A DNA stretch of 64,000 nt from Minisyncoccota bacterium (GCA_035452965.1 DAOTCE010000015.1:33818-97817), one strand, 5' to 3'; shown: positions 9,167 to 37,900, counted from the first letter of the stretch. Made by a program: numbers and translations. The notes: generated from the sequence alone by a model not told the origin.

Positions 9167-9460
9167 CCAGCTTGACAGCCGCCTCGACCGCAGCCGGCGC
9201 ATAGCGCTTAAGGCCTGCAGCCAACACTACGTCATCCTGTTTTCGTTGTTGCCCTTCGACCTGCAGCCCGGGAAGGTATTAGTCGAAAAGTCTGCACAGG
9301 CATGCGAGCGCAACCTGAGCGGTTTCGAACGCAGACGTCCGCCATCAGCTTCAGTTTGGCGAGCTGATTGGATGCCCAATTGCAGTCATAACGCTGCGTC
9401 TGAAGCGCTTCGGCCTTGACCCATTTCGTTGGTCCGCCCACGATTTGCCCTGCAACGATC

Positions 9461-18880: not shown

Positions 18881-19921
18881 CTACCCGGAGCCTTCGGCCA
18901 GCAACTGATTCAGCTTGCCCATGACGGCGAAGGCGTCGGCGACATAAAGCACGTCAGCCTTGCCTCGCGCCCAGCCGCAGTTCGGATCGAGATTGATGGC
19001 GCGGCGCTCAGCAATGAAGCGCCAGCCAACCGTGTGTGGCTCTTCCCCATGACAGCACGTGGCCAGCCCTTTCGGGTGCCGGGGCGTGGAGCCGGTTTGG
19101 CCTATTTGATTAAGATGCGTCAGGAAGGACAGCACCGCCTGCCCCTCGCCGCCCAAGTCTACCAGCGACTTGCTGCTGCCAAGCGAGGCTCGGGAGAGCT
19201 TGAGGCAGTCGAGAATTAACTGCTCGGCTTCCTTGACGTGCGCCTGACTGTCGGCCTGTTTCTTTGTCCAGCCGGCGCCAGCCACCAGTAGCAAATTGGC
19301 GTCGGGCCGTATCGTTTGAGCATCAGCCGCCGGTTCGCGCACCCCAAGCACAGTGGTACGTTTGCAGGTTTCAGACAGGCTGACCGGAATAGCCTGCACG
19401 GCTGCGGTCCCGGCGGCGCCTTCCCAGGCCGGTTGACTGCCGGGATCAATGAGGATAAACCACGGCCTAAGAGTCCGCCGCAGGACGGCTTCCATGCGCT
19501 GGCGATAGTACCAGCGACTGATTGACGGCGCGCCGTTGTCAGCGGCGAGCCCGGTTACGTGCGTGTCCGCTCGGCCGCCCAGCCGTTGGGCAACGCCCGG
19601 CAGGGCCCTGTTCCAACGCGAGGTCGCTGGTGCCAGGACCAGGGTAGCCTGAGCGGCTTTGGCGAGCGCTTCAACCGCAGCGGCGTCCGTGGCGTAGCGC
19701 GATTGCGAAAAGTCAGGGCCCGCCACACCCAGAAAAGCGGCAGCCCCGCAAGCAGCTATGCGGTCGGCGGCGGCCTGCACATCCCGGCCAACCAGGGCCA
19801 CGATCAGTTTCGAGTCGGCCATGCCGGCACACAGGGTCTTAGCCGCCCCCAGGGCTTCGAGCGCGGGCTTGGCCAGCGAACCATCGGTTTCGATGTGGGC
19901 GAGGAGAAGAATTGTTTCCAT
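18881..19921 (-). CDS. Electron-transfer-flavoprotein alpha-subunit-like protein (divergent EtfA/FixB)
   Basis: 346 aa. The C-terminal half follows the ETF-alpha pattern (LGSSKSLVD, QIGQTG, AINLDPN, ADVLYVADAFAVMGKL), but the canonical G-I-S-G-A-x-Q-H block reads CCHGEEPH. It sits downstream of an ETF-beta-like gene on the same strand. Confidence 0.7.
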   Translation of the reverse strand: METILLLAHIETDGSLAKPALEALGAAKTLCAGMADSKLIVALVGRDVQAAADRIAACGAAAFLGVAGPDFSQSRYATDAAAVEALAKAAQATLVLAPATSRWNRALPGVAQRLGGRADTHVTGLAADNGAPSISRWYYRQRMEAVLRRTLRPWFILIDPGSQPAWEGAAGTAAVQAIPVSLSETCKRTTVLGVREPAADAQTIRPDANLLLVAGAGWTKKQADSQAHVKEAEQLILDCLKLSRASLGSSKSLVDLGGEGQAVLSFLTHLNQIGQTGSTPRHPKGLATCCHGEEPHTVGWRFIAERRAINLDPNCGWARGKADVLYVADAFAVMGKLNQLLAEGSG

Positions 19922-19995
19922 AACGGGAAAATGCTAAAGGGGGTGATAGAATGTTGGAGTGATGGAGCCTCGGCGCGCGCGCCAATTCGCAGACA

Positions 19996-20805
19996 TTACC
20001 TTCTTATCCATTGGACAAGCTCCTGCGCGATCTCATCTGGAGACTTATCTTTCACGATCCTGGTCGTGCGCAGTTGCTTCGGCAACGACACGCTGGCGAA
20101 GGCCAGGCCTTCGGCGGCGAGTTTAACAGGCTTCGCCCTTTGCAGGGCGGGCATTACGGCGCGCATATTAGCCATGCCGATCTGCGGATTATTTCTAGGT
20201 TCCGGAAGATTGCCGGTCGCCCAGCCGAGCAGGGCAGGAGGCCCTGCGCAGCGTGAAACCTGGTGCTTTCCACCTTCAACGCGTTCGAGAATTTCCAGCG
20301 ATCCGTCGGCGCTCACCTTCAACTCGTCCACGCCTTGGAACTGGTCCAGGATGCCTAAACGTTCGCCTACCATCTGCATCGTCGCACCGGCGCCGCGCGA
20401 GGCGGACTCCCAGCCGCCAAACACGAGCAGTTTCGTGCGGTCGAGCCCGGCGATCCCCTGGATGGCCTCGGCCAGCACTGCGGCGACTTCCGCCGCCTCG
20501 GCAAATCCGCTCGCCGGGCCGTCGATGGCAATGAGTTCAAAAGGCACCTTTTGCGCGACAGTCATCATCACCTGCTGCAGCTTGGCTTTAGGGCCGAGGC
20601 TCACGAGCCAGACTTTGCTGCCGGGGGTGTTCTTCGCCAGGTTGGCTGCCTCATACAGTGCGTGGCTTGCCCACGGGTCGAGGACGGCGGGAAGCATCAT
20701 CTCATTCTTCAACGCGGGACCAGTGGAACCGGTCACCGGCTCCAGGGTTTGGAGCGGGTCCGGCACAATAGTGCCACAAACAACTATTTGATATGCGGTG
20801 GTCAT
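19996..20805 (-). CDS. Electron-transfer-flavoprotein beta-subunit-like protein (EtfB/FixA-like)
   Basis: The ORF opens at 20865; the ATG at 20805 gives MTTAYQIVVCGTIVPDP, the ETF-beta-type start. Other blocks are LDPWASHALYEAANLAK, VWLVSLGPKAKLQQV and LLVFGGWESASRGAGATMQMVGERLGI. Confidence 0.72.
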   Translation of the reverse strand: MTTAYQIVVCGTIVPDPLQTLEPVTGSTGPALKNEMMLPAVLDPWASHALYEAANLAKNTPGSKVWLVSLGPKAKLQQVMMTVAQKVPFELIAIDGPASGFAEAAEVAAVLAEAIQGIAGLDRTKLLVFGGWESASRGAGATMQMVGERLGILDQFQGVDELKVSADGSLEILERVEGGKHQVSRCAGPPALLGWATGNLPEPRNNPQIGMANMRAVMPALQRAKPVKLAAEGLAFASVSLPKQLRTTRIVKDKSPDEIAQELVQWIRR

Positions 20806-21132
20806 GCGCCACGGATCATCTTGAGTTTTGAGCCCCTTGGGAAGCCTGAAACGCGTAGGATGCAATCGGCGGAGCAGCTGCAGCCGTCACTTGCCAGTAA
20901 GGTGACCCAAACTGAATTGGCGTCCAACGGTCCTGGGAAAGCGTCTTTCCAACTACCAGCGATTCCATTGAACGCAAACCCGGCGTGCCTGTCTATTATG
21001 GTGTTAGGTTTGTTGGTTTTGTTAGTGGTTTCATAGGTGCAACCTGGCTTCGGCTGGGTGCACCTTCTTTATGTCCAACCGCCACTTTGGTCTTGCGGAG
21101 TTTTCGAGTGCCGGTAGCGTCTGCAGGCGTCT

Positions 21133-22047
21133 TTGAAATTGGCCCCTACATTGGTCATCCTGGCCGCCGGCATTGGTGCCCGCTACGGCGGATTGAAACA
21201 GATAGAACCCGTTGGCCCGGCCGGGGAGGCCGTCTTGGATTACTCGGTCTTTGATGCGAGGCGCGCGGGTTTTGGCAAGTTCATCTTCGTCATCCGCCGC
21301 GACGTCGAGCAGGATTTTCGGGACAGCTTTGGCCGGCGCTTCGCCAGGCACGTGAATATCGATTATGCCATCCAGTCCCTGGACATGGTGCCGCCTAACT
21401 GCTACGTCCCGCCCGATCGTCAGAAGCCGTGGGGAACCGGCCATGCCGTGTTGTGCGCCGCTCTGTTGCTGGACCGCCCTTTCGCGGTCATCAACGCGGA
21501 CGACTTCTACGGGGCGGAGTCCTTCGGCGTGCTCGCCCGGTTCTTGACGCAGACCGCGCCCTCCAATCCCGACCTGTTCGCGATGGTGGGTTTCCAACTG
21601 GACCGCACACTTTCGGAGCACGGCACCGTGGCGCGGGGCCTCTGCCAGACGGATGAGGAGGGATACTTGACATCCGTTGAGGAGTTGACCGCCATCGAAA
21701 GACAGCCCATTGGCGCCCGCAACCGGGAGGCTGATGGCAGTTACCGTGACCTGACCGGGCTGGAGACTGTTTCGATGAATTGCTGGGGATTTACACCGAA
21801 ATTGCTGCCCGGCCTGCGCTGCTTATTCAGCGAGTTTCTGGCCCGCAACCAGGCCAACCTCAATGCCGAGTTCTACCTGCCCACGGCCGTCAATGCGCTG
21901 ATGCGGGAGGGGCTTGTACGAGTTACTGTGTTGCCAACATGGTGCCATTGGTTCGGCGTGACCTATCGTGAGGACCGCGCGGTGGTAGTGGACAGCATCC
22001 GGGCGCTCATTCGTGCCGGCAAGTATCCAGCACGGTTGTGGGGTTGA
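21133..22047 (+). CDS. Sugar-1-phosphate nucleotidyltransferase (NTP_transferase fold)
   Basis: 304 aa with a TTG start per the ORF track. It has the N-terminal nucleotide-binding loop LVILAAGIGARYGGLKQIEPVG, then WGTGHAVLCA and VINADDFYG. The sugar specificity is unknown. Confidence 0.78.
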   Translation: MKLAPTLVILAAGIGARYGGLKQIEPVGPAGEAVLDYSVFDARRAGFGKFIFVIRRDVEQDFRDSFGRRFARHVNIDYAIQSLDMVPPNCYVPPDRQKPWGTGHAVLCAALLLDRPFAVINADDFYGAESFGVLARFLTQTAPSNPDLFAMVGFQLDRTLSEHGTVARGLCQTDEEGYLTSVEELTAIERQPIGARNREADGSYRDLTGLETVSMNCWGFTPKLLPGLRCLFSEFLARNQANLNAEFYLPTAVNALMREGLVRVTVLPTWCHWFGVTYREDRAVVVDSIRALIRAGKYPARLWG

Positions 22048-22055
22048 ACCCCCCT

Positions 22056-23189
22056 ATGTCTGAGAGCCAGCCGAGACACGATCTTCGCTCTGTCGCCGCG
22101 CACTTCCAGATCTACGGCGATTTCCGGGAAGCCGCGCCTTACGGCAGCGGCCACATCAACGACACCTACGCCGCCGTCTTCAATCAATCCGGCAGCTCGA
22201 TGCGCTACATCTTCCAACGCATAAACCACAACGTCTTTAAGAACCCCGCCGGTCTGATGGTCAATGTCGAGCGTGTCACGACGCACATCCGCCGCAAGTT
22301 GGAGGCGCTTGGTGCGGATCAGATCTCCCGGCGCGTCCTGACGCTGGTGCGCGCGAACGACGGCAAGTGCTGCTATGCGGATGCCGCAGGCAACCACTGG
22401 CGCTGTTACCTGTTCATTGAGCACGCAACGAGCTACGACCGGATTGAGACTCCCCGGCAGGCATTCGAGGCAGCCCGGGCGTTCGGCCAGTTCCAGAAAC
22501 ACCTTGCCGACCTGCCGGCACCTCGACTGGAGGACACCATACCCGACTTCCACCACTCACGCAGGCGCTTTGACGCGCTGCGCCAGGCGATCGAACGGGA
22601 CGCCTGCAATCGGGCCGCCGGGGTAAAAGCGGAGATCGGGTTCGCGCTGCGGCACGAGCCGCTCGTGGATGTGCTGCTGGGCCTGCAAGCGCGCGGCCAA
22701 CTCCCGGAACGAGTAACGCACAACGACTGCAAGCTCAACAACGTCATGCTCGATGACGCCACCGGCGAGGGCATGTGTGTGATTGACCTTGATACGGTTA
22801 TGCCTGGCCTGGCCCTCTATGATTTCGGCGATATGTGCCGCACAGCCGCATGCCCAACGCTGGAGGACGAGTCCGACCTCTCCAGGGTCGAAATGCGCAT
22901 GGACATGTTCGAGGCGCTGGTCGGTGGGTACTTGGCGTCCGCAGGCCAGTTCCTGACTCCTGTCGAGAAGGACCATCTCGTGTTCTGCGCCAAGCTTATT
23001 ACCTTCGAGATTGGCTTCCGATTTCTGGAGGACCATCTGCGGGGCGACCTCTATTTCAAGGTCCATCGTCCGGGCCAAAGCGCGGACCGTGCACGGGTCC
23101 AGTTCAAGATGGTGGACTCATTCGAACGCAACGAGGTGGCGATGCGCAAAGTGGTGGAGGTGGCCGAGCGCCAAGTCGGGCGACAATAG
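22056..23189 (+). CDS. Anomeric sugar kinase of the APH/NahK family (N-acetylhexosamine 1-kinase-like)
   Basis: The ORF opens at 22038 (GTG, overlapping the upstream stop); ATG at 22056 is preferred. Blocks PYGSGHINDTY, FQRINHNVFKNPAGLMVNVERVT and the catalytic loop THNDCKLNNVMLD..VIDLDTVMPGLALYDFGD match my recollection of NahK/LnpB-type kinases. Confidence 0.75.
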   Translation: MSESQPRHDLRSVAAHFQIYGDFREAAPYGSGHINDTYAAVFNQSGSSMRYIFQRINHNVFKNPAGLMVNVERVTTHIRRKLEALGADQISRRVLTLVRANDGKCCYADAAGNHWRCYLFIEHATSYDRIETPRQAFEAARAFGQFQKHLADLPAPRLEDTIPDFHHSRRRFDALRQAIERDACNRAAGVKAEIGFALRHEPLVDVLLGLQARGQLPERVTHNDCKLNNVMLDDATGEGMCVIDLDTVMPGLALYDFGDMCRTAACPTLEDESDLSRVEMRMDMFEALVGGYLASAGQFLTPVEKDHLVFCAKLITFEIGFRFLEDHLRGDLYFKVHRPGQSADRARVQFKMVDSFERNEVAMRKVVEVAERQVGRQ

Positions 23190-23495: not shown

Positions 23496-23855
23496 CCCAC
23501 CACAAGCCAATGCGAGGGTATGGCCACCCTGACGACGGTGTCGCCCGTCCAGCGAGGGTACCGGCGGTTAGAGGGGCCGCCCGAGAAGACAAATCGCCAT
23601 CGGTATTCTCCGGGAGTCCGCAAAGAACCAATGAGTAGTTTCAAGTTGGAAGTGCCTTAGCGTGACGCATGTCCTGCTTGCGGGAATTCGAGGAGGTCGC
23701 CAAGCCATTTGCGCATTGCACAGTCGCCAGTTTGCTCTATAACTAGGCAATGAAGCTGCGCCATTCAGTTCCCGCCTATTGCAGCCTGCCTCCGGGTTAA
23801 TGACATTATGAAAGCCTGGAAGGACTTAGCGTGCAGCAACCGCCGGTTGGGGAAA

Positions 23856-26006
23856 ATGCGGCTTTCCCGGATGATTGTCGTGGTGACAAGCTGGGGCATG
23901 CTGGCGGCGAACATGGCGCCGAAGGCTGGCGCCGCGCAGGGTTGGTGCAAGATCCCTTCACTCGCGGCAGGGAAGGTCTTTCGCGCCGGAGCCAGCGCCA
24001 CGGACGTCACGCCGACGAATTTGCCTGTCATTGTCAATGGCGGCTTCCTGACCCAAACCGCCGGCACGATTCACGACCGCTTGCATGTGCGTTGGCTGGT
24101 GCTGGATGATGGGCGAATGCGCGTGGCATTGGGTGTGTTGGACACGTGCCTGATTCCCGCGGAATTCGCAGACGCGGTAAAGGAGCGTGCGGAAAAGCTC
24201 ACCGGAATCCCGGCAGACCGCATCATGCTCTCTGCTACGCACACTCACAGCGCTCCGTCGCTGATGCGATGCCTGGGCACCGAAGCTGACCCACACTACC
24301 CGGCGTTCCTGCTGCCCCGGATTGTGGCGGGCTTGCAACACGCGGCGGCCAATGTCGGCCCAGCCCGCGTCGGTTGGGCGGTCGCGTCGGCGCCGGACCA
24401 CACGCACACGCGCATCTGGATTCGACGGCCTGACAAGATGCTGCCTGACCCATTTGGCGACCTGACCGTCCGCGCCAACATGCATCCCGGTTACCAGAAT
24501 CCGGACACTGTTGGAGTGTCGGGGCCTTCGGACCCGGCGTTGACCCTGCTGGCAGTGCAATCACCCGAGGGCCGGCCTATTGCCGTTCTCGCGAACTATT
24601 CGATGCACTACTTCGGCGCGCCCGCCATCTCGCCGGATTACTACGGTGTGTTCGCGCGCAAGATTGGACCGCATATCGGCGCGGTGGACGCGGAGCGCGC
24701 CTTCGTCGGCATCATGTCGCAGGGCACCAGCGGCGACCAGCATTGGATGGATTACAGCCAGCCCAAGCGCGCGGTTGAGATAGACGCTTACGGCGGTGAA
24801 TTGGCGCAGATTGCCGCCGACGCATACAGAACGATTACGTTCCACGATTGGGTTCCGCTAGCTATGCGCGAGAAGAAGCTGCGGCTCGGAACGCGACAGC
24901 CGGATGCGAAGCGACTGGCGTGGGCGAGCGACCTCGTCGAGAAGCTGAATGGGCGTCCGCCGCATTCGCTGCCGGAGGTGTATGCGGGAGAGCAACTCTG
25001 GCTGAAACAGAACCCCAGCCGCCCTGTGAGGCTCCAGGCCCTGCGGGTTGGCGAACTGGGCATTGCCATCTGGCCGTGTGAGGTCTTCGCCATCACCGGG
25101 CTGAAGATCAAGGCCCAAAGCCCGCTCCAGCCGACGATGAACATCGAGTTGGCCAATGCTGAGGAGGGTTATGTGCCCCCGCCCGAACTGTATCCCTTGG
25201 GCGGCTACAACACCTGGCCCTGCCGCACCGCTGGGCTGGAAACGAACGCCGAACCCAGGATGGTCGAAGCGTTGCTCAGTCTGCTCGAGAAAGTCAGCGG
25301 TCAGCCGCGCCGCAAGGTCGCCGCCTCGAATGGCGCTTACGCCCAGGCGGTGCTGGCAGACAAACCCCTGGCGTATTGGCGATTCGAGGAATGGAGCGGC
25401 CCTATCGCGCTGAACTCCGCGGGAACGCGTCGGCACGCAACGTATGAGCCGGGCGTGGCGCGATGGTTGGAGGGACCGCAGTCACCGGCATTTTCCGGAC
25501 CAGGCACCATGAACCGATGCCCGCATTTTGCCGGCGGCCGGCTGGTGGCAAACCTTAAGAAGCTTAGGGAAAGCTACACGTGCGAATTATGGTTTTGGAA
25601 TGGCCTGCCTAACGACTTGCGCCCGGTCACTGGGCACTTATTCGGGCGCGGCGGGCAATCCCTCGCGCTCGGCGGCACGAACAGCACGCCCGGCACGCTG
25701 GTGTTCGGCCCACTGTCGGGCCGAACTGTGATCAAATCCAAGACGTGGAATCACGTGGCGCTGGTGCGGGATGGCTCACGCGTGGCGGTTTACCTGAACG
25801 GGAACCCTGCGCCGGAAATCACCGGAGCGGCCGCGCCCGAGAAATCGCCGGACATCTTCCTTGGCGGACGCGGCGACAAGGAGGCAACATTCGAGGGCCG
25901 CCTTGATGAGGTCGCCATCTACAATCGAGCGCTGTCGCCCCTGGAAATCCAACGTCACTATCAAGTGGCCAACGCCCCCGCTGGCACAGTCGCGCTGAAC
26001 CCGTAA
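23856..26006 (+). CDS. Secreted neutral/alkaline-ceramidase-like hydrolase domain fused to a C-terminal LamG (concanavalin-A-like) domain
   Basis: The ORF opens at 23808; the ATG at 23856 gives the signal peptide MRLSRMIVVVTSWGMLAANMAPKAGA. The N-terminal pattern GASATDVTP..IHDRLHVRWLVLDDG..VLDTCLIP..MLSATHTHSAPS resembles the ceramidase_alk N-domain. The C-terminus TCELWFW..WNHVALVRDGSRVAVYLNG..FEGRLDEVAIYNRALSPLEIQRHY is LamG-type. Confidence 0.75.
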   Translation: MRLSRMIVVVTSWGMLAANMAPKAGAAQGWCKIPSLAAGKVFRAGASATDVTPTNLPVIVNGGFLTQTAGTIHDRLHVRWLVLDDGRMRVALGVLDTCLIPAEFADAVKERAEKLTGIPADRIMLSATHTHSAPSLMRCLGTEADPHYPAFLLPRIVAGLQHAAANVGPARVGWAVASAPDHTHTRIWIRRPDKMLPDPFGDLTVRANMHPGYQNPDTVGVSGPSDPALTLLAVQSPEGRPIAVLANYSMHYFGAPAISPDYYGVFARKIGPHIGAVDAERAFVGIMSQGTSGDQHWMDYSQPKRAVEIDAYGGELAQIAADAYRTITFHDWVPLAMREKKLRLGTRQPDAKRLAWASDLVEKLNGRPPHSLPEVYAGEQLWLKQNPSRPVRLQALRVGELGIAIWPCEVFAITGLKIKAQSPLQPTMNIELANAEEGYVPPPELYPLGGYNTWPCRTAGLETNAEPRMVEALLSLLEKVSGQPRRKVAASNGAYAQAVLADKPLAYWRFEEWSGPIALNSAGTRRHATYEPGVARWLEGPQSPAFSGPGTMNRCPHFAGGRLVANLKKLRESYTCELWFWNGLPNDLRPVTGHLFGRGGQSLALGGTNSTPGTLVFGPLSGRTVIKSKTWNHVALVRDGSRVAVYLNGNPAPEITGAAAPEKSPDIFLGGRGDKEATFEGRLDEVAIYNRALSPLEIQRHYQVANAPAGTVALNP

Positions 26007-26063
26007 GTCATTTACTGCATGAATCCCCACTGCAGTCTCCAAACCAAACAAGAAGCCTCACCA

Positions 26064-27431
26064 ATGAATGCACCTATGAAGACCCAAATGAATCGTCGTG
26101 ATTTCCTGAGAAGCTCCACCGCCGCCCTGGCGGCCATCAGCTTGCCAGCAATCATCCCCGCGTCGGCCTTCGGCGCCGGCAACAAGATCGCTCTGGGCTG
26201 CATCGGCGTCGGCGGGATGGGCACGGGGAACATGAAGAGCTTCCTGGCGCTCGAGGACTGTCGGGTCGTGGCCGTTTGCGACACCTACGAGGACCGCCGC
26301 CAGAAGGCCAAGAATCTGGCGGACACGCAGTATGGGGACAAAGGCTGCGCAATGCACGACGACTACCGCGAGGTGATCGCGCGGAAGGACATTGACGCGG
26401 TGATGATCGCCGCGCAGGACCATTGGCACGCCCTGATCGCCACCGCCGCAGCCGCCGCGGGCAAGGACATGTATCTGGAGAAACCGATGGGCACATCAGT
26501 CGAGCAGAGCCAGAAGATTCTCCGGGCCGTTCGCAAGCATAAGCGCGTGTTCCAGGCCGGCACGTGGCAGCGGTCGCAGGGCAAGTTCCGCCAGGCCTGC
26601 GCCCTGGTCCGCAACGGCTACATCGGCAGTCTGCGCGAAATGCAGGTTGGCGCGCCCGGCCCGCAATACCAGCCCAAGTATGCCGGCTCCCTTGAGCCGC
26701 AGCCGGTGCCCGCGGGTTTCAACTGGGAAATGTGGCGCGGGCCGGCGCCGGCCAATCCCTACAATCCGGGCCGCGTCGCGTGGCCGGATTGGTATCTCAT
26801 CTGGGACTATTGCGCCGGTTTCATCTGCAACTGGGGCGTGCATTACCTCGACATCGCCTACTGGGGCTGCCCGGCGTTGGCGACGGAGCCGTGCGAACTC
26901 GAATGCCAGGGCGTCTATCGCAAGAAAGGCTTGACCGACAATATTGAGAGCTGGAATGCCACCTTCACCCTCGCCAGCGGGGTGAAAATGGTCTTCACCG
27001 ACGTTTCCACCGAGCAGGAGGAGAAGACCGGCACGCGGTTCATTGGCGACAAGGGCTGGGTGCATGTGAGTCGCGCCGGCATCCGGGCCGAACCGGAATC
27101 ATTGCTGCAGGTCAGACCGAAGGCCGGCGAGACGCACCTCTATGAGGTGCCGGGAGAGGATGTGACGATCGTCAGGAAGGAAGGTGGCGATCGGGCCGCC
27201 TTCAAGGAGCTTAACCACGGCCAGAACTTCCTGGATTGCGTCCGCAGCCGCAAGGACCCGATCTCGAATGTTGAGGCGACGCATGTGGCATCCTATCTGG
27301 GCCTTATCGCGGAAATCGCGGCGCGGCTCCAGACGCGGTTGAAATGGGACCCTAAAAAGGAAAAGTTCATCGGCAATCGCGAGGCCAATCAGCGGCTAAG
27401 CCGGGCGCTGCACAACGGTTGGAAACTGTAA
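26064..27431 (+). CDS. TAT-exported Gfo/Idh/MocA-family NAD(P)-dependent oxidoreductase
   Basis: The ORF opens at 26019; the ATG at 26064 gives MNAPMKTQMNRRDFLRSSTAALAAISLPAIIPASAFG, a twin-arginine signal. It has the Rossmann block IALGCIGVGGMGTGN and DAVMIAAQDHWHA..GKDMYLEKP. Confidence 0.9.
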   Translation: MNAPMKTQMNRRDFLRSSTAALAAISLPAIIPASAFGAGNKIALGCIGVGGMGTGNMKSFLALEDCRVVAVCDTYEDRRQKAKNLADTQYGDKGCAMHDDYREVIARKDIDAVMIAAQDHWHALIATAAAAAGKDMYLEKPMGTSVEQSQKILRAVRKHKRVFQAGTWQRSQGKFRQACALVRNGYIGSLREMQVGAPGPQYQPKYAGSLEPQPVPAGFNWEMWRGPAPANPYNPGRVAWPDWYLIWDYCAGFICNWGVHYLDIAYWGCPALATEPCELECQGVYRKKGLTDNIESWNATFTLASGVKMVFTDVSTEQEEKTGTRFIGDKGWVHVSRAGIRAEPESLLQVRPKAGETHLYEVPGEDVTIVRKEGGDRAAFKELNHGQNFLDCVRSRKDPISNVEATHVASYLGLIAEIAARLQTRLKWDPKKEKFIGNREANQRLSRALHNGWKL

Positions 27432-27522
27432 AGAATGAAGTGGCGCCAGCCAGACAAACCACAGCGCGCCTCGGCGGGCTATGGCTGAGTGACCGGAAAA
27501 CCAAAACAAAGGAATCAACAGC

Positions 27523-28350
27523 ATGAGCAAGATCTACATTGGACTGAATGCGGAATTCTCGCGCAGCTCGGACAAGCCATTCGAGTGGGCGGTCCAGAAG
27601 GCGGCGGAGATGGGATACAAGTATTTTGAGCCGATGGTACACCTGGGCCGGGAATTGATGAGCGAAGCGGGCTATTTTCACACCGTTTCCATGTTCGACG
27701 ATCCCTGGCGCATCAGGGAGGCTTGCGACAAGGCGGGGCTGAAGATATCGGGCCTTCAATCGCACGGCCCGCTGGGCCGGCCCGACGTGCACGGCGAATA
27801 CATCAAGCTCGCCATTCGGGTCGCGGCCGAAATCGGCGTGCCGGTCATCAACACCGACGAAGGGATCAAGGCCAAGTGGACCACCGAGGAAGAAGACTTC
27901 GTGCTGATCAAATACACGCTGCAAGAGGCGGCATTCATTGCCGAGCGGCGGGGCATCAAGATCGGCATCGAGCCGCACGCGCAATACTCGCGCCATCCCG
28001 ATGGCCTCGACCGCATCTACAACCTGGTCAAGTCGCCTGCCATCGGCATCAACTTCGACACCGGGAATGTCTACCTGTGCGGGCACGATGTCTATGCGTG
28101 GCTGGAGCGCGTCGCTTCCCGGCTCGTTCATCTCCACGCCAAAGACATCTCCGTGGCGCACTCGGACGCCGAGCGCGGCAAGGTGACGGGAACGCCCGTC
28201 GGCTGCGCCTGCGGGGAGGGAGTGCTCGACTGGGCACGGATCATCCGGATCGTTAAAGAGAAGTGTCCACGCGACATTGTGTTCTCGGTTGAGTGCGGCA
28301 CGCCCGCGCAGGCGGCCAAGAGTCTCGATCACCTCTCGAAATTGGTGTAA
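27523..28350 (+). CDS. Xylose-isomerase-like TIM-barrel protein (sugar phosphate isomerase/epimerase family)
   Basis: 275 aa with no signal peptide. Family-typical blocks are GYKYFEP, VINTDEG, GIKIGIEPH, INFDTGNVYLCG and VHLHAKD. Confidence 0.88.
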   Translation: MSKIYIGLNAEFSRSSDKPFEWAVQKAAEMGYKYFEPMVHLGRELMSEAGYFHTVSMFDDPWRIREACDKAGLKISGLQSHGPLGRPDVHGEYIKLAIRVAAEIGVPVINTDEGIKAKWTTEEEDFVLIKYTLQEAAFIAERRGIKIGIEPHAQYSRHPDGLDRIYNLVKSPAIGINFDTGNVYLCGHDVYAWLERVASRLVHLHAKDISVAHSDAERGKVTGTPVGCACGEGVLDWARIIRIVKEKCPRDIVFSVECGTPAQAAKSLDHLSKLV

Positions 28351-28386
28351 GCCGGCGGGCGCAGGGAGTGGCGCTTGTGTCACTAC

Positions 28387-28538
28387 CGGTTTGACCTGTG
28401 TGTTTAGCGTAGCGCAGGCGTCCTCGCCTGCGGGCTCCGGCCGCATCTCGCCCTCGGTTTGCATCCGCGCACCGACATGGCGCGCCAAACCGCAGGCGGG
28501 GACGCCTGCGCTACGCTAAACACATACGGTTTGACCTG
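28387..28538. mobile_element. MITE-like insertion: 126-bp element with 35-bp terminal inverted repeats, flanked by a 12-bp direct duplication
   Basis: The left arm TGTGTTTAGCGTAGCGCAGGCGTCCTCGCCTGCGG (28399-28433) matches the reverse complement of 28490-28524 at 34 of 35 positions. The direct repeat CGGTTTGACCTG occurs at 28387-28398 and 28527-28538. Each arm contains the sub-hairpin GCAGGCG-N4-CGCCTGC. It is intergenic, between the TIM-barrel gene and the ARH-like gene. Confidence 0.55.
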
Positions 28539-28630
28539 CTGGTGCTGCCAGGCGCCAGAGTGACTGGTGGCACGTAATACGGCGGCTCTTTCTCGTTTAC
28601 AGCGCCGCCGGTTTTCTGCACGGTGGCGGC

Positions 28631-30322
28631 ATGAAACGACTCGTTCTGCTCCTGCTTGCGTTCGTTTGCACCCCAACTTTCGCCTGGCGCCTGGCGGCAG
28701 CGCCGCCCAAAGCCACCGAGTTTCACCGCCTGTCGCTGGCGGAGTTCCGCGACAAGATGATGGGCGGCTGGGCAGGCCAGATCGCCGGGGTTTGCTGGGG
28801 CGCGCCGACGGAGTTTAAATACAAGGACCAGATCATTCCTTTGGACCACGTGCCGGTTTGGAAGCCGTCGCTCATCAACAACGCGTTTGGACAGGACGAC
28901 CTGTATGTCGAGATGACCTTCCTGCGCACGCTCGAGCAGTATGGCCTGAAGGTCTCCATCCGCCAGGCTGGCCTCGATTTCGCCAATAGCGGCTATCCGC
29001 TCTGGTGCGCAAACAAGGCCGGACGGGACAATCTTCGCGCCGGCATTGCTCCGCCCGATTCCGGCCACCCAAAGTTCAACAAGTGCCCGAACGACATTGA
29101 TTACCAGATCGAGGCCGATTATTCGGGCCTGATCGCGCCGGGCTTGCCGCAGTTTGCCATCGAGATGGGCGAGAAGTTCGGGCGGCTGATGAATTACGGG
29201 GATGGCATGTATGCGGGGCAATTTGTCGGCGCGCTCTATGCCGCGGCCTTCTTCGAGAGCGACCCGGTGAAGATCGTCGAGACGGCGCTGCAGGCCATTC
29301 CGGCGGAGAGTCAGTATGCCGAAATGGTCCGGGACCTCGTTGCGTGGTATCGTGCCGACCCGAACGATTGGGAGAAAGCCTGGCGGCTTTGCCAGAAGAA
29401 ATACCGCGAGAACCCGGACTACCAGAAGGCGTCAAACGGGGGTATTGACTGCAAAATCAACGGCGCCTACGTGTTGCTCGGCCTGCTTTGGGGCCAGCGC
29501 GACCCGGACCGCACGATCATCATCTCCATGCGGGGCGGCCAGGATTCCGACTGCAATCCGTCCAGTTCGGCTGGGGTGCTGTTCACCACGATGGGCTTTG
29601 CGAACCTGCCGGAACGATTCACGAAGGAGCTGAACCAGACCAACATCTTCAGCCACACGGTTTACAGTTTCCCGAAGCTCATTGCCGTTTGCGAGAGCCT
29701 CGCCCGGCAGGTCGTCAAGAGCGCCGGCGGCAAGGTCGCTCGCGAAAGAGGCGAGGAAGTCTTCTATATCCCCGCGCGGGCGCCGCAGCCGAGCAGACTG
29801 GAGCTGAGCTGGGCGCCCGGCCCGATTGCGAACAGCCGCTACACACCCGCCGAGATGTCAAAGATCAAGGTAGGCAACTCGCCCGCGCAGATGCACGCGG
29901 CGCTGGAGAAGTTCGCGCCTGGCTGGCAAATCACCAACTGCGGCCCCGACATGGACCCCGGTCTGCGCGCGGATTGGGGCGGCAAGAAGAATGTGCTGGT
30001 CACACATCCACTCGACGACCATACCGGCTGTGTCCTGAGCAAGAAGACCAAAGTGCCGGCGGGCAAGAAGGCCACGCTGCGACTGGTTGTCGGCCATGAC
30101 CCTCAGGGCGACTTCGACCTCATTGTGCGGGCGGATGGCAGGGAACTTCTGCGCAAACCCGTATCCAAGGCCACTGCTACCAGCGACCCTTGGTTGGAGC
30201 AGGTGGTGGACATCTCCGGATTCGCCGGCCAGAAGGCGCCAAAGATCGAGCTGATCAATCAGCCCTCTGGATGGTCTTTTGAGGCGGCCTATTGGGCGGA
30301 GATTTCGGTTGTGACGGAGTAA
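28631..30322 (+). CDS. Secreted ADP-ribosylglycohydrolase-fold protein with an extra C-terminal beta-rich domain
   Basis: 563 aa with the signal peptide MKRLVLLLLAFVCTPTFAWRLAAA. ARH-family-like blocks are MMGGWAGQIAGVCWGAPTEFKY, NDIDYQIEADY and ISMRGGQDSDCNPSSSAGVLFTTMG. About 150 additional C-terminal residues follow. Confidence 0.8.
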   Translation: MKRLVLLLLAFVCTPTFAWRLAAAPPKATEFHRLSLAEFRDKMMGGWAGQIAGVCWGAPTEFKYKDQIIPLDHVPVWKPSLINNAFGQDDLYVEMTFLRTLEQYGLKVSIRQAGLDFANSGYPLWCANKAGRDNLRAGIAPPDSGHPKFNKCPNDIDYQIEADYSGLIAPGLPQFAIEMGEKFGRLMNYGDGMYAGQFVGALYAAAFFESDPVKIVETALQAIPAESQYAEMVRDLVAWYRADPNDWEKAWRLCQKKYRENPDYQKASNGGIDCKINGAYVLLGLLWGQRDPDRTIIISMRGGQDSDCNPSSSAGVLFTTMGFANLPERFTKELNQTNIFSHTVYSFPKLIAVCESLARQVVKSAGGKVARERGEEVFYIPARAPQPSRLELSWAPGPIANSRYTPAEMSKIKVGNSPAQMHAALEKFAPGWQITNCGPDMDPGLRADWGGKKNVLVTHPLDDHTGCVLSKKTKVPAGKKATLRLVVGHDPQGDFDLIVRADGRELLRKPVSKATATSDPWLEQVVDISGFAGQKAPKIELINQPSGWSFEAAYWAEISVVTE

Positions 30323-32333: not shown

Positions 32334-34529
32334 GTGAGTGAATTTAACCTCGTCCGGAAATCGAGTCTCGCGGGTTGTCTCCTGCTGTACCTGGGGGCGC
32401 TGTGTTTTCAGATGCGCGGCGCCACAAACGACGACTTCTCAAATGCACAGAACCTCACCGGCGCCAGCGGCACGACAACCGGGGACAACATCGGAGCCAC
32501 CAAAGCACCGGGCGAACCGGATCACGCTGACAACAGTGGCGGCAGTTCTGTGTGGTACAACTGGACCGCGCCGAGCGACGGCTCGTTCTTCTTCAGCACC
32601 TTCGGGAGCGAGATCGACACCGTGCTGGCCGTTTATACGGGCAACACGGTGAACAATCTGACGCCGGTTGCCAGCAATGGTGATGCAAACTTCGACCTCA
32701 CCAGCATCGTGAGTTTCCTGGCAACGAGCGGCACTACCTATCGGGTGGCCATTGACGGATATGACGGGGAGAGCGGGGCGCTGGTCCTGGACTGGGGACC
32801 AGAAGTTCCCCCTGCCAACGACAACTTCGCCGACGCGCTGCTCATCAGCGGGACCGCCGGCAGTGTGGCCGCGACCAATGCTGGCGCGAGCATGGAAACC
32901 GGCGAACCCGACCATGCGGGGGCCCCCGGGGGGCGATCCGTGTGGTTTCAGTGGACGGCGACCACCACGAATGAGATGTCCATGACCACCGCGGGCAGCG
33001 ATTTCGACACCACGCTGGCCGTATATACAGGCACAAGCGTGGATGCGCTGGCGGAGGTGGCAAGCAATGATGCCTTTGAGGAGGATGGCACGAGCGTCGT
33101 CATCTTTCTTCCCTCGGCGGGAACGACGTATCGCATCGCGGTGGATGGCTTCCCGGGCGCGATGGGAACGGTGATGTTGAATTGGGGGCCGTACGATAAT
33201 GGCGCTGAGCCCGCGCTCAAGGTTAGTTTCTCGCCGCTGCGGCATTTCACGAATGACACGGACGGCTTTTGGCCGCAGGCCCCATTAATTGGATTCGGAG
33301 ACCGGCTTTACGGTACGACACCCACCGATGTTACGGGCGACGGAACTGTTTTCGCGCTCAACACGGATGGCACCGGATTCACGGTGCTGAAGGCATTTGC
33401 CAGCGGCGCGGACGGAGGCGCGCCACACGCCGGATTGATTGCGTCCGGAGAGACGTTGTACGGAACGGTCTCCGCCGGCGGTGCTGGTCTCCGGGGCGCG
33501 GTGTTTGCCATCAATACGAATGGCACAGGGTTTGACCTTCTGCACAGCTTTCCACCCACTTCCGGTCCGCTGTCCACCAATGCCGATGGGGCGCGTCCGG
33601 AAGCCGAACTGGTTCTATCGGGAGACACTCTCTACGGCGTGGCGCGATACGGCGGCAACTCTGGCGCAGGAACCGTCTTCTCCCTGAAGACCAATGGAAC
33701 AGCCTTCACAACGCTGCATCACTTTCCTGAAGTCCTTGGCGAGTCCGAATCCAACAGCGAGGGCGCGAATCCGGTGGGCAGCCTCGTGATCAGGGGAGAC
33801 ACTTTGTACGGGGCGGCCGTCACTGGCGGCAATCTGGGCTATGGAACAGTGTTTGCGCTCAAGACCAACGGCACGGGCTTTGGAACGCTGCGCCATTTCG
33901 ACGGGACGGATGGACTGTTTCCCCGGGCCTTGATCCTGGCGGGAGACATTTTGTATGGAACCGCCACTGACACCTTGTTTGCGATGAATACCAACGGCAC
34001 TGGCTTTAGCAACCTGGCGAGCTTTGCCGCACCGAGCCGAGGTTCTCCTGACGGTCCCATCGTATTGTCCGGTGACCGGATTTATGGGTCCACTTACCAT
34101 GGTGGCATGGCGGGTATAGGCGCGATTTACTCCGTTCGCACCAATGGCGCCGGCTTTGTCTTGCTGCATCAGTTTCCGCCGACGGCTGGTCCGTCCTCAA
34201 CCAATAGTCAGGGTGCGTTTCCGCGTGGGCTGAGCCTGTTCGGGAACGCGCTCTATGGGGCCGTGGAAGGCGGCGGAATATGGGGTTATGGCACCGTGTT
34301 TCGCCTGGCGTTCCCTCCGCCCATGCTCGACATGGTCGCGGATGGCGCCAATGCCCTGCTTAGATGGCCAGCCTCTCCCGGCGGGTTCAACCTCCAAACC
34401 GCCACAAGTCTCGAGGCTCCAGTAAGCTGGAGCACCAATGGTGGGGTGACGGCTGTCGTCAATGGGCAGAATCTCGTGACCAATCCCGCCACTGGCACAC
34501 AGAGGTTTTACCGCCTCAAATTGCAGTGA
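32334..34529 (+). CDS. Secreted repeat protein: two N-terminal NDxF..GEPDH..DTxLAVYTG modules, GloVer (Gloeo_Verruco-type) tandem repeats, C-terminal FYR-ending module
   Basis: 731 aa with a GTG start and the signal peptide LAGCLLLYLGALCF. The duplicated ~130-aa modules are NDDFSNAQNL..GEPDHADNSGGSSVWYNWTAP..DTVLAVYTG and NDNFADALLI..GEPDHAGAPGGRSVWFQWTAT..DTTLAVYTG. About 8 repeats of the type LYGTx..GG..GxGTVFxLxTNGTGFxxLHxF follow. The protein ends ..QRFYRLKLQ. Confidence 0.85.
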   Translation: MSEFNLVRKSSLAGCLLLYLGALCFQMRGATNDDFSNAQNLTGASGTTTGDNIGATKAPGEPDHADNSGGSSVWYNWTAPSDGSFFFSTFGSEIDTVLAVYTGNTVNNLTPVASNGDANFDLTSIVSFLATSGTTYRVAIDGYDGESGALVLDWGPEVPPANDNFADALLISGTAGSVAATNAGASMETGEPDHAGAPGGRSVWFQWTATTTNEMSMTTAGSDFDTTLAVYTGTSVDALAEVASNDAFEEDGTSVVIFLPSAGTTYRIAVDGFPGAMGTVMLNWGPYDNGAEPALKVSFSPLRHFTNDTDGFWPQAPLIGFGDRLYGTTPTDVTGDGTVFALNTDGTGFTVLKAFASGADGGAPHAGLIASGETLYGTVSAGGAGLRGAVFAINTNGTGFDLLHSFPPTSGPLSTNADGARPEAELVLSGDTLYGVARYGGNSGAGTVFSLKTNGTAFTTLHHFPEVLGESESNSEGANPVGSLVIRGDTLYGAAVTGGNLGYGTVFALKTNGTGFGTLRHFDGTDGLFPRALILAGDILYGTATDTLFAMNTNGTGFSNLASFAAPSRGSPDGPIVLSGDRIYGSTYHGGMAGIGAIYSVRTNGAGFVLLHQFPPTAGPSSTNSQGAFPRGLSLFGNALYGAVEGGGIWGYGTVFRLAFPPPMLDMVADGANALLRWPASPGGFNLQTATSLEAPVSWSTNGGVTAVVNGQNLVTNPATGTQRFYRLKLQ

Positions 34530-34807: not shown

Positions 34808-34915
34808 TGCGCAGATTCGGGCGCAATAGGGGTTGTGGTACTGGGGGTTTTCGGGTTTGCTGGTGGGGGCGTGCACCGGAAGGTGCCACCCAGGCGAGAG
34901 TCGAAAGAGAGCACT

Positions 34916-37900
34916 ATGCGAAACAGGATCACCCCCGTAAATCTGTGGCTGACCATATCCACCATGGCCAGCCTTTTTTTGACCGCGAACCTTGACGCTG
35001 CGGCAAGCGACCTTGCCCGGGGCTTCGCTTCGCCGCCTCAGTCCGCCAAGCCGTGGGTCTATTGGTTCTGGTTGGATGGAAATATCACACGCGAGGGAAT
35101 CACCGCCGACCTGGAGGCCATGCGGCGGGTGGGGATTGGCGGGGTGCTGATCATGGAAGTGGACCAGGGAGCGCCCCCAGGGCCCGCGCGGTTTGCCAGC
35201 CCACAGTGGCGCGAGCTCTTCAAGTTCATGCTCACCGAGGCCAAACGACTGGGCCTGGAAGTCAACATGAACAACGACGCCGGCTGGTGCGGGAGCGGCG
35301 GGCCGTGGATTCCGCCCGCGCTGGCCATGCAGAAAGTGGTGTGGACGACCACCAACCTGGATGGGCCGCGCCGGTTCGAGGGGGTGCTCCCGGAACCGCA
35401 AAGAGTGGCGAATTACTATGAGGACATCGCCGTGCTGGCCTTCCCAACTCCAGCGGAGTATCAGATCGAGAACATCCAGGCCAAGGCGGCGTTCATCCGT
35501 CAGGAAGTGCCGTTCAGGAAGTTGTCGGAGCCACTCCCGGTGGAGAAGACCATTGCTCGCGGCGGCAGCCGCGAGTTGACGGCGCAGATGGGCAAAGATG
35601 GCCGGCTGGCGTGGGATGTGCCGCCTGGCAAGTGGACGGTGCTACGCTTAGGCCATACCCCGACCGGCAAAGATAATCATCCCGCGCCGCTTGATGGCCG
35701 GGGACTGGAGTGTGACAAGCTGAGCCGCAAAGCGGCGGACGCCATGTTCGAGGGACTGATGGGCAAGCTTATCGCGGATTCCAAGGCGCTGGCGGGCAAG
35801 ACGCTGGTGGCGACGCACATTGATAGCTGGGAGGTGGGATCGCAGAACTGGACCCTGGCCTTCCGCGAGGAGTTCAAGCGGTTGCGCGGCTACGACCCAT
35901 TGCCCTTCCTGCCGGTGATGACGGGGCGCGTAGTGGAGAGCCTGGAAGTATCCGAGCGGTTCCTGTGGGACCTGCGCCAGACCATTTCAGAGTTGGTGGT
36001 GGCGAACTACGCGGGGCGGTTTCGCGAGCTGGCGCACGAACACGGGTTGCGGCTCTCCATCGAGGCATACGATGGCTGCTGCGACGACATGACCTACGCC
36101 GGCCAGGCCGATGAACCGATGGGCGAATTTTGGTCATGGACTTTTGGCAGCGGCGCGGATTGGTGCACCGAGATGGCCTCTGCAGCACACATTTACGGAA
36201 AGCCCATTCTGGGCGCCGAAGCGTTCACGGCAACGGACAAAGAGAAGTGGCTCGGGCATCCAGGCGGCATCAAGGCGCTGGGCGACTGGGCATTCTGCGA
36301 AGGAATCAACCGGTTTGTGTTCCACCGCTATGCGTTACAGCCGTGGCGGGATGTGAAGCCCGGCATGTCTATGGGGCCGTGGGGGCTGCATTACGAGCGC
36401 ACGACGACCTGGTGGGAACAGTCCACAGCCTGGCACGAGTATTTGTCCCGCTGTCAGTACTTGCTCCAGCAGGGGCAATTCATTGCGGATGTCTGCTACC
36501 TGTCGCCGGAAGCGTCGCCCTATCGCTTCCGCGCTCCGCCGACGCCCGGGAACCCGTCGCATCGGCCTGCCTACAACTTCGACGGCTGCACCCCTGAGGC
36601 AGTGCTGACACGTATGAAAGTGAAGGGCGGACGGCTCGTTTTGCCCAGTGGCATGAGCTACCGCGTGCTTGTCCTGCCCGAGGTGGAAACGATGACTCCC
36701 AAACTGCTGCGCAAAGTCAGGGATCTAGTCGAAGCAGGCGCGACAGTCGTTGGGCCAGCCCCGTTGAGGTCGCCCAGCCTCTCGAACTTTCCGCAGTGCG
36801 ACGAGGAAATCGCGACGCTCACGCGCGAGCTTTGGGGCGGCGGGGCAGGGGAGGGGACCAGCTTGTTCGGGCGGGGCCGAGTGATTTGGCCCATTGAGCA
36901 AAGGGAACAAGAGCCGCAGGACATGCCAGCCCGACTTGGGTCGGCCAAGTGGATCTGGTTTAAGGAAGGCAATCCGGCCGCAGCGGTGCCCGCCGGCCGA
37001 CGCTACTTCCGTCGAGTGCTAAACCTGGAAGCGGCGGCAGAGGTTGAATCCGCACCAATGGTGATGACCGCCGACAATGAATTCGAGCTTTGGGTCAACG
37101 GTCGTCGTGCCGGAGGAGGAGCAGACTTCAATCATACCTTTGCAATGGACTGCGCGCGCCTACTTGTGCCGGGTTCGAACTTGCTGGCGGTGGCGGCCGT
37201 AAACGGCGCGGATGCACCCAATCCCGCGGCATTGATTGGCAACCTGATTATCAAGTATCGCAGTGGCCGCACCATCCAGGTGCCCACCGACGGCAAATGG
37301 GAGTCGGCCAGGACGGTCCAGGGCGACTGGCGCGGCGACGTGCAGGCCCCCGGAGCCTGGGAACCGGCGCTGGAAGTCGGGGCGCTGGGGATGGCGCCTT
37401 GGGGAGACGTCACGGCACAGGCGCAGGCGCCGTACCCGAGCGCGGAGGCAACTGCGGTCCTGCTGCGCAAACTGGGCGTGCCGCCGGACTTTGATTACGC
37501 GACCCAGAGCACGGAGCGGAGCCTGCGCTACATCCACAAGCGGCTTGGCAAGACAGACCTCTATTTCGTGGCCAACGAGAAGCCGCACCCCGAGGCAGCG
37601 GTGTGCAGCTTCCGCGTTCAAGGCAAACGGCCAGAGCTATGGTGGCCGGACAGCGGGAAGATCGAACAGTCGGCGGTGTATGACGAGACAGGCGGCTGCG
37701 TGCGGATGCCGATTCATTTTGACGCAAGCGGCTCGGTCTTCGTGATGTTCCGCCCGGGCGGCGACCTGGAGCGGGACCGGATCATAGCCGTGGAGCGAAA
37801 CGGTGAAGCACTGGTTGACTTACGTAAGCAAGAACTGTCGGCGCCTGTGTTGGAAGAGGCCGTAATTGGGTTGGTTCGCGGCAAGGCGGGCACCGTGCAG

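Follow-up and report, generated by a model that had tools for sequence, protein, structure and literature searches.

In a 64,000-nucleotide stretch of DNA deposited under Minisyncoccota bacterium (GCA_035452965.1, DAOTCE010000015.1:33818-97817; the whole stretch is called the window here), a gene for a Gfo/Idh/MocA oxidoreductase (OXR) with a twin-arginine translocation (Tat) motif is followed after 91 nucleotides (nt) by a gene for a xylose-isomerase-like TIM-barrel protein without a signal peptide (TIM). Comparison with related loci indicates that this adjacency is not due to chance, and that the linkage is old and selected, though not obligate. We propose that the pair is part of a conserved gene cluster, of a type found in the Planctomycetes-Verrucomicrobia-Chlamydiae (PVC) group, in which sugars or glycosides freed by nearby exo-glycosidases would be processed oxidatively; taken as a whole, this mechanism is quite possible but still tentative. 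The genes and sites on which the argument turns are the following (lengths in amino acids, aa).

23808-26006, plus strand: CER-like/LamG, a secreted protein with a neutral-ceramidase-like Zn-hydrolase domain and a C-terminal LamG domain, from Pfam matches
26064-27431, plus strand: OXR, Gfo/Idh/MocA oxidoreductase, 455 aa (451 aa from 26076), alternative starts at 26019, 26064 and 26076
26064-26168, plus strand: Tat signal peptide of OXR, with the arginine pair at 26094-26099, a hydrophobic region and an A-S-A cleavage motif
27432-27522, no strand assigned: OXR-TIM spacer, 91 nt, in which AAGGA, resembling a ribosome-binding site, lies 9 nt ahead of the start of TIM
27523-28350, plus strand: TIM, xylose-isomerase-like TIM-barrel metal enzyme without a signal, 275 aa, metal tetrad E150, D179, H205 and E257
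28631-30322, plus strand: secreted protein of ADP-ribosylglycohydrolase (ARH) fold, 563 aa, Pfam ADP_ribosyl_GH 6e-24

All four genes lie on the plus strand, and no terminator-like site was seen on that strand in the spacer between OXR and TIM. Two antisense open reading frames (ORFs), at 27367-28488 and 26496-27065, gave no family match and were rejected as genes, being regarded as by-products of the high GC content. A preliminary description of this DNA, made from the sequence alone, had proposed this same layout, and it was borne out: the signal given there as NRRDFLRSS is present as NRRDFLR with an A-x-A motif, its arginine pair being invariant in orthologues; the gene 91 nt downstream does encode a signal-less xylose-isomerase-like barrel; and the flanking ceramidase-like/LamG and ARH-fold genes were recovered by Pfam, their N-termini reading as Sec-type signals by inspection of the translations.

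The evidence for linkage comes from two scans. A scan for relatives of OXR, with one genome per species, gave 79 loci in Verrucomicrobiota, Kiritimatiellia, Lentisphaerae, Planctomycetota and Hydrogenedentota, 36 of which have at least 5 kb on each side; in these full-flank loci a gene was taken to be near when it lay within 8 kb of the OXR orthologue. The window itself is part of a 113-kb metagenome contig, and its close relatives all belong to the Verrucomicrobiota. A TIM homologue is near OXR in 13 of the 36 full-flank loci, 12 of them with a close orthologue (at least 80% identity) and otherwise with a relative of 42-46% identity; in Hydrogenedentota an OXR orthologue of about 60% identity is found near a TIM of just 42-46% identity. 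The most constant neighbour of OXR is a CER-like gene (23/36), and two or more OXR paralogues occur in 15 of the 36 loci. The second scan, centred on TIM and made on metagenome contigs, gave 80 loci, 19 of them with at least 3 kb on each side, and in these 19 we found an OXR-family gene in 18, a CER-like gene in 13, a ThuA-like gene in 11 and a signal-bearing TIM paralogue in seven. Wherever a TIM-centred locus contains an OXR-family gene, the two are on the same strand (37/37). The preliminary description had asked whether the pairing is syntenic across PVC genomes, and co-directional pairing was indeed found in Verrucomicrobiota, Kiritimatiellia, Lentisphaerae and Hydrogenedentota. Neighbourhoods labelled with Pfam contain a recurring set made up of Tat-type OXR paralogues, CER-like proteins of about 480 aa, ThuA-domain proteins, signal-bearing TIM paralogues and the signal-less TIM.

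OXR shows the features of the Gfo/Idh/MocA superfamily, namely a Rossmann GxGxxG motif, an EKP motif and a C-terminal domain with the catalytic His, and its Pfam matches (GFO_IDH_MocA PF01408, 3.8e-17; GFO_IDH_MocA_C2 PF19051, 1e-21; PF22725, 1.3e-6) are all above cut-offs. The true start is likely to be at 26076 (MKTQMNRRDFL), which agrees with an identical database protein, P0001, of 451 aa. From there the N-terminus runs through N-R-R-D-F-L-R and a hydrophobic stretch to A-S-A/F, immediately followed by the Rossmann GVGGMG. The match to Pfam TAT_signal (7.6e-4, 19.8 bits) is under the cut-off of 22.7 bits, and a precomputed PF10518 match is present on many OXR homologues; because all of 14 aligned orthologues (65-85% identity) have R11, R12 and F14, we regard the Tat motif as real on these comparative grounds. 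The same alignment has GxGxxG (residues 48-53), E139-K140-P141 and H260 as invariant positions.

The top curated family of OXR is NCBIfam BT_2158_fam (NF058561, glycoside 3-dehydrogenase, 2.2e-39), and its closest solved relatives are PDB 8tdf and 8tdh (5e-26), which are the glucoside-3-dehydrogenase AL3 of Alistipes. DgpA comes next (7xr9, 5.5e-16), with inositol dehydrogenases, LgdA, glucose-fructose oxidoreductase (GFOR, about 1e-6) and GH109 enzymes lower; among family profiles, the levoglucosan dehydrogenase family gave 5.5e-13 and IolG (TIGR04380) 78 bits against a cut-off of 355 bits. A clustering of OXR with inositol or glucose-fructose dehydrogenases, which the preliminary description named as speaking against its proposal, was therefore not seen, AL3/BT2158 being ahead of both IolG and GFOR. 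At the level of single residues, His252 of AL3 is kept as the invariant H260, and the position of Gln161 is adjacent in the alignment to the invariant Q169. Asp248 of AL3 aligns with the invariant N256, so that Asn replaces Asp, and N256-x3-H260 corresponds to the Asn205/His209 pair of the glucuronide 3-dehydrogenase P2B11-Oxido1. Since the catalytic residues are kept but the counterparts of Arg192 and Trp195, by which AL3 holds the glucose ring, are G199 and Y202, OXR appears, as far as the alignment tells, to be a distinct family with an AL3-type catalytic core and a different sugar pocket. A structure model of OXR built from the 14-sequence alignment was poor (mean predicted local confidence, pLDDT, of 63), and the fold search made with it was undiscriminating (template-modelling (TM) scores of 0.5-0.57). 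By analogy with AL3 and BT2158, OXR would hold NAD(P) tightly and oxidise C3 of its substrate.

The alpha-N-acetylgalactosaminidases of GH109 are likewise Tat-exported proteins of about 450 aa with a Gfo/Idh/MocA fold and NAD, and OXR could accordingly be a self-contained NAD-dependent glycosidase of the GH109/GH4 type, which performs oxidation, elimination, hydration and reduction in one site; TIM would then be a highly expressed cytoplasmic enzyme with no link to OXR beyond a common regulation. The size, Tat signal and fold of OXR fit such an enzyme, as do weak matches (6t2b, 4e-7; 2ixa, 8e-4) that cover the Rossmann part only and do not place OXR in GH109. In the ranking, however, GH109 is far behind AL3 and DgpA; GH109 enzymes work without partners, and a route with several enzymes is favoured by the tight, co-directional synteny that ties OXR to TIM and to the CER-like and ThuA-like genes. 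We consider the one-enzyme alternative improbable.

TIM matches Pfam AP_endonuc_2 (1.3e-31), and its model is of high confidence (pLDDT 94). A signal peptide is excluded because the ATG is preceded, at a distance of 33 nt, by an in-frame TGA (27490) and the first beta-strand starts at residue 4. No signal is present in any of 27 aligned homologues, and the best 120 database matches, 274-310 aa long, cover the query from its start. Three residues of the metal tetrad (E150, D179 and H205) do not vary and the fourth, E257, hardly does, down to relatives with 30% identity, and the modelled barrel with its divalent-metal site resembles in this respect the 3-keto-glycoside lyases and hydratases. Its first metal ligand is a Glu, which differs from the H-D-H set of the AL1 type. 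Profile searches are led by MJ1311 (2e-23), Art22 (4e-23), UlaE and IolE, while the matches to DgpC (4e-5 over 50 residues), AtHYD (1.4e-4) and AL1/BT1 (0.06-0.075) do not amount to a specific relationship with the 3-keto-glycoside lyases; the score against the IolE family TIGR04379 is 43 bits, the cut-off being 290 bits. Foldseek gave TM scores of 0.68-0.79 to all xylose-isomerase-like barrels, with AL1/BT1, DgpB-C, AtOGE and AtHYD at 0.68-0.75, and since all score alike we rejected reading the function from the fold. None of the sources provided a specific name for the protein, and nothing usable was found in the literature on 3-keto-glycoside work in PVC bacteria or on Art22. TIM may be a lyase or hydratase, because this scaffold has repeatedly given rise to 3-keto-glycoside eliminases that lack sequence similarity to one another (PMC10628242); the role of an epimerase, an isomerase or a dehydratase would fit equally well. 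The preliminary description had viewed the pair as an oxidation/elimination module, and of this the functional link stands, through the synteny and the proximity of OXR to AL3, but the elimination step does not gain from TIM, which has no specific similarity to 3-keto-glycoside lyases.

These rankings have to be weighed for a scheme without bond cleavage, in which OXR would be a periplasmic dehydrogenase or transhydrogenase of free sugars, polyols or cyclitols, similar to GFOR, ThuB or IolG, and TIM a cytoplasmic follow-up enzyme of the IolE or epimerase kind. IolG for OXR (78 bits) and IolE for TIM (43 bits) are second-rank matches, TIM folds closest to UlaE, MJ1311 and IolE, and the E-D-H-E ligand set is typical of epimerases and dehydratases; moreover, GFOR is the classic Tat-exported member of the superfamily, with bound NADP (PMC8121099), and the association with ThuA exists. 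The IolG and IolE matches are nevertheless far under their family cut-offs, AL3/BT2158 is clearly the best match of OXR, and the long ORFs of the window gave no Pfam match to any other inositol-catabolism family. The cluster also sits amid exo-glycosidases, together with secreted LamG, ceramidase-like and ARH-fold hydrolases. Such a free-sugar scheme is in our opinion unlikely, yet probable enough to be kept in mind.

An unexpected feature, which sets TIM apart from its neighbours, is its conservation. The best 120 database matches, from Verrucomicrobiota, Kiritimatiellia, Lentisphaerae and Planctomycetota, are 84-92% identical, and single 90% clusters contain Pirellulaceae together with Verrucomicrobiae; beyond these close orthologues, the next relatives are below 50% identity. 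In the same loci, TIM is 82-95% identical, as against 55-86% for OXR, 57-79% for the CER-like protein and 56-86% for the ARH-fold protein. Four-fold degenerate sites of the TIM genes are 25-54% identical in pairs with 82-93% protein identity, which we estimate to be near chance level, or saturation, at a third-position GC content of about 80-90%. Recent horizontal transfer as the source of the conservation is rejected by these values. Very strong purifying selection is the simplest reading and points to an enzyme that may be highly expressed or constrained in many ways.

Where TIM works is central to any mechanism. It had been suggested in the preliminary description that TIM might travel with OXR, that is, bind it in the cytoplasm and be carried through the Tat system, the two forming together a periplasmic oxidation/beta-elimination deglycosylase. 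A signal-less protein encoded 91 nt after a Tat-signal protein is what one expects of such a passenger, an OXR-family gene lies at most 300 nt upstream of TIM in 12 of the 54 loci whose sequence extends 1.5 kb or more upstream, and the slow evolution of TIM could reflect a binding surface common to many partners. To our knowledge, though, no complex of a Gfo/Idh/MocA protein with a TIM-barrel protein has been described so far. Exported TIM paralogues of sister clusters bear signals of their own: signal-bearing paralogues, with Sec or Tat signals (TAT_signal_seq was matched), occur in 27 of the 79 related loci, for example in L090 (9067-9960), L080 (3521-4849) and L091 (16768-17592). There is also no single obligate partner, as the gene directly upstream of TIM varies among OXR paralogues of 26-84% identity, CER-like genes and signal-bearing TIM genes, and in Pirellulales TIM occurs without OXR. 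The characterised AL and BT enzymes, finally, are interchangeable and do not form obligate complexes (10.1101/2024.03.25.586180). Co-export of TIM thus appears very improbable, and because of the paralogues' own signals, the varied upstream genes, the OXR-free occurrence and the independence of the AL/BT enzymes we place TIM, with good probability, in the cytoplasm.

Two further candidates were dismissed in the course of these comparisons. The best solved match of the signal-bearing TIM paralogues is the uncharacterised BDI_1903 (3p6l, 1.5e-49), and calling them AL1-like was rejected, with AL1/BT1 absent at E <= 0.01 and no match to the BT2156-type family. In Planctomycetota, a small conserved gene upstream of TIM was considered as a partner and likewise rejected: the two upstream proteins had no evident similarity by inspection, one having a start that resembles a pilin-type N-methyl protein.

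The closest precedent is the oxidise-eliminate-hydrate pathway of BT2156-BT2160 in Bacteroides thetaiotaomicron and AL1-AL5 in Alistipes (Liu et al. 2021, PMC8121099; Nasseri et al., 10.1101/2024.03.25.586180). There, AL3/BT2158, Tat-exported and with tightly bound NAD, oxidises glycosides at C3, and a TIM-barrel lyase (AL1/BT1) and a DUF1080 lyase/hydratase (AL2/BT2) finish the cleavage (10.1101/2024.03.25.586180; PMC8121099). The window cluster resembles it in that the best match of OXR is this Tat-exported Gfo/Idh/MocA protein of about 450 aa, encoded in a cluster with a xylose-isomerase-like TIM-barrel gene, and in that OXR keeps the catalytic His and the NAD-binding motifs. It differs in the score of OXR (135 against 750 bits) and in its pocket (Arg192 to Gly, Trp195 to Tyr, Asp248 to Asn), in a TIM that is signal-less, has E-D-H-E instead of H-D-H ligands and is only marginally similar to AL1/BT1 (E 0.06), and in the lack of a DUF1080 lyase/hydratase along with the extra ceramidase-fold, LamG, ThuA-like (in relatives) and ARH-fold proteins. 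The combination of a signal-bearing TIM lyase with DUF1080 that marks the BT2156-60/AL1-4 clusters was not found in the window, DUF1080 having been sought among the long ORFs scanned.

Other systems share parts of the arrangement. DgpA with DgpB/C, acting on C-glycosides, and LgdA with LgdB, acting on levoglucosan, also pair a Gfo/Idh/MocA 3-dehydrogenase with TIM-barrel Mn enzymes, but both are cytoplasmic and without a Tat signal; DgpB-C is a hetero-oligomer, and the match of TIM to DgpC is weak, at Foldseek rank 39. The ThuAB proteins of rhizobia produce 3-keto-disaccharides (PMC8121099), and in the ThuA/ThuB systems of Agrobacterium and Sinorhizobium the gene for a Gfo/Idh/MocA dehydrogenase adjoins a ThuA-domain gene, as the closest relatives of our cluster have a ThuA-like gene directly after TIM. 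The ThuA-like proteins of the related clusters differ, however, in having signal peptides, and OXR is not a close homologue of ThuB in the tests run. In Agrobacterium tumefaciens, AtOGE and AtHYD (PMC10628242; PDB 8ro4) are TIM-barrel metal enzymes that act, after a separate oxidation, on 3-keto-glycosides or 2-hydroxy-3-keto-glucal, and TIM recognisably matches AtHYD in both the fold search and the profile search (Foldseek rank 28); there the oxidation is by a flavoenzyme, and the match of TIM to AtHYD is no better than those to epimerases and dehydratases. The general scheme of oxidation by a Tat-exported Gfo/Idh/MocA enzyme followed by elimination on TIM-barrel or other enzymes is already established for Bacteroidota, for Agrobacterium and for a Gram-positive metagenome clone, and the periplasmic oxidise-then-eliminate idea of the preliminary description is less novel than it had seemed, the BT2156-60/AL1-4 work having been published (10.1101/2024.03.25.586180, PMC8121099). 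What appears to be new, judging by the genes, is the composition of the cluster, which joins ceramidase-fold, ThuA-like and ARH-fold proteins to an ultra-conserved TIM without a signal and has no DUF1080 member.

Of these additional proteins, CER-like/LamG is matched by Ceramidase_alk (PF04734, 1.5e-8, 34.2 bits against a cut-off of 32.1) and Laminin_G_3 (1.6e-16), and the profile of the CER-like family matches the neutral ceramidase of P. aeruginosa (2zws) at 6e-14. Invariant T-H-x-H-x-x-P columns align with THTHSGP of the ceramidase, the THTH(S/T)xP motif, and the histidines of this motif may correspond to the zinc ligands of neutral ceramidase. An orthologue of CER-like/LamG in the Kiritimatiellia locus L091 (10907-13759; 950 aa, 65% identity over 684 aa) has an added C-terminal ThuA domain; this locus also contains two OXR paralogues in succession, each with a CER-like gene immediately after it, and a third that comes after the CER-LamG-ThuA fusion. 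These pairings, the homology to the catalytic domain of neutral ceramidase and the fused LamG, a carbohydrate-binding domain, are in line with a core pair made of OXR and a ceramidase-fold amidase: the latter would remove the N-acyl group of an amino-sugar or of a glycolipid-like molecule, OXR would oxidise the product, and TIM would take a keto-amino-sugar further downstream. The ceramidase similarity is limited to the N-terminal 250 residues, though, nothing points to the substrate, and a ceramidase fold would be equally usable as a lyase or hydratase, so that we give amide removal as the first step only a slim chance.

ThuA-like genes occur in 19 of the 79 OXR loci and 22 of the 80 TIM loci, and the ThuA-domain proteins carry signal peptides. 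The gene order in the closest relatives is CER - OXR - TIM - ThuA-like - ARH, with a secreted ThuA-like gene of about 317 aa between TIM and ARH in L002, L003, L017, L101 and L141. At this site the window has a spacer of 280 nt (28351-28630) with two features.

28387-28538, no strand assigned: palindromic element, with 52-nt arms at 28399-28450 and 28473-28524
28515-28574, plus strand: remnant of the ThuA-like gene, its last ~19 codons and the stop, from tblastn and DNA alignment

The inverted repeat lies between copies of a 12-nt direct repeat, CGGTTTGACCTG, and this repeat motif has a single site of occurrence within the window. The tblastn match of the remnant (AKHIRFDLLVLPGARVTGG against ANLYRFDALVLQGARVSGG, 68%, E 0.07) is weak alone; a DNA alignment with L002 gives the same position. 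From these alignments, the ThuA-like gene is judged to have been deleted in the window, leaving the last ~19 codons. Its ARH-fold neighbour is conserved downstream in the closest relatives, with orthologues of 83-86% identity in L002, L003 and L017. In L091 (306-4542) an ARH-fold orthologue of 56% identity has a nucleoside hydrolase, a PfkB kinase and a sugar-type permease as neighbours, which hints at a ribosyl or furanosyl substrate.

The wider surroundings of the cluster form a glycan-degrading region with three GH106 genes, a GH43 gene (7946-9166) and a sulfatase gene (6054-7451).

9416-18858, plus strand: two GH106 alpha-L-rhamnosidase-family genes upstream of the cluster (9416-15463 and 15412-18858), from Pfam
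34835-38560, plus strand: third GH106 gene, downstream of the cluster, from Pfam

The first GH106 protein is 2015 aa long with an extra GH78-like part, and its gene overlaps the second by 52 nt. The region looks like a locus for rhamnose-rich or sulfated glycans. Directly upstream of the cluster and on the same strand are overlapping genes for an NTP-transferase-like protein (21133-22047) and an APH-family kinase (22038-23189), which could be a sugar-1-kinase/nucleotidyltransferase salvage pair. The minus strand carries, at 18881-20865 and 40152-44263, genes for the alpha and beta subunits of an electron transfer flavoprotein (ETF), an Fe-S protein like ETF-quinone oxidoreductase (ETF-QO) and an unusually long acyl-CoA-dehydrogenase-like protein (745 aa), and, at 45436-51129, a sensor histidine kinase of 1897 aa with about seven PAS and three GAF domains. 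An exosortase (EpsH) gene is followed by one for a TPR protein (53788-57044), and proteins of 731 aa (32334-34529) and 495 aa (58958-60445) have no Pfam match. P0001, the protein identical to OXR, is labelled 'Candidatus Paceibacterota' by NCBI; all close relatives and the gene content point to Verrucomicrobiota, and the bin assignment is probably wrong.

Given the genes found, the Tat motif of OXR, the fold and metal site seen for TIM, the conserved gene order and the closest relatives, we infer a pathway whose cofactor, oxidised position, substrate, compartments and chemistry at each step would be as follows. OXR would fold in the cytoplasm around tightly bound NAD(P) and be exported by Tat. 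In the periplasm it would oxidise a secondary hydroxyl, most likely at C3, of a glycoside or oligosaccharide delivered by the neighbouring exo-enzymes, the gene context suggesting rhamnose-rich or sulfated glycans as the source. It would work there beside the Sec-exported ceramidase-fold Zn enzyme with LamG and, in relatives, also beside the ThuA-like protein that the window has lost. The keto-intermediate would be cleaved or otherwise processed and the keto-sugar product imported, and cytoplasmic TIM would act on this common product as an isomerase, epimerase, dehydratase or lyase. If TIM acted on a common product, it would be understandable that a single, almost invariant TIM goes with many OXR paralogues that differ widely from each other.

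Several observations weigh against this proposal. The score of OXR against BT_2158_fam (135.4 bits, over residues 10-268 only) is far below the 750-bit equivalog cut-off, only the N-terminal 260 residues align well to the BT2158/AL3 type, and the sugar-binding residues Arg192 and Trp195 of AL3 are replaced. TIM is nearest to barrels of the epimerase/dehydratase type (UlaE, MJ1311, IolE, Art22), with AL1 and DgpBC lower. Neither a DUF1080 hydratase nor a sugar transporter is present among the scanned long ORFs of the window, nor does the window contain a signal-bearing TIM, its sole TIM barrel being the signal-less one. In Pirellulales/Planctomycetota, TIM is found in two contexts among unrelated genes, without OXR. 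Because the ThuA-like gene has been deleted, the local cluster may also be decaying.

On a larger scale, the data could be read as a PVC-wide, hitherto undescribed version of oxidative glycan catabolism, in which many substrate-specific periplasmic modules, each with a Tat-exported Gfo/Idh/MocA dehydrogenase, a ceramidase-fold Zn enzyme serving as lyase/hydratase or as deacylase and a ThuA-like protein with a redox or helper function, would converge on one keto-sugar and a single, almost invariant cytoplasmic TIM. The 82-95% identity of TIM across phyla would then mark a highly expressed metabolic hub of these polysaccharide degraders. We regard this wider reading as speculative and rather unlikely in its full extent. 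In soils, lakes and oceans, Verrucomicrobiota, Kiritimatiellia and Planctomycetota are major agents in the breakdown of polysaccharides that are complex and often sulfated, and their genomes contain many unassigned genes for Gfo/Idh/MocA proteins with Tat signals and for "sugar phosphate isomerases". If the cluster were indeed an environmental counterpart of the gut oxidise-eliminate-hydrate pathway, a function would be assigned to a large block of unannotated genes, and estimates of carbohydrate turnover that consider only classical glycoside hydrolases would be too low. The ceramidase-fold partner would then be a new enzyme type for oxidative glycoside chemistry. The near-invariant TIM is in itself an abundant marker that is simple to use, and biochemical work would find in it a well-defined target.

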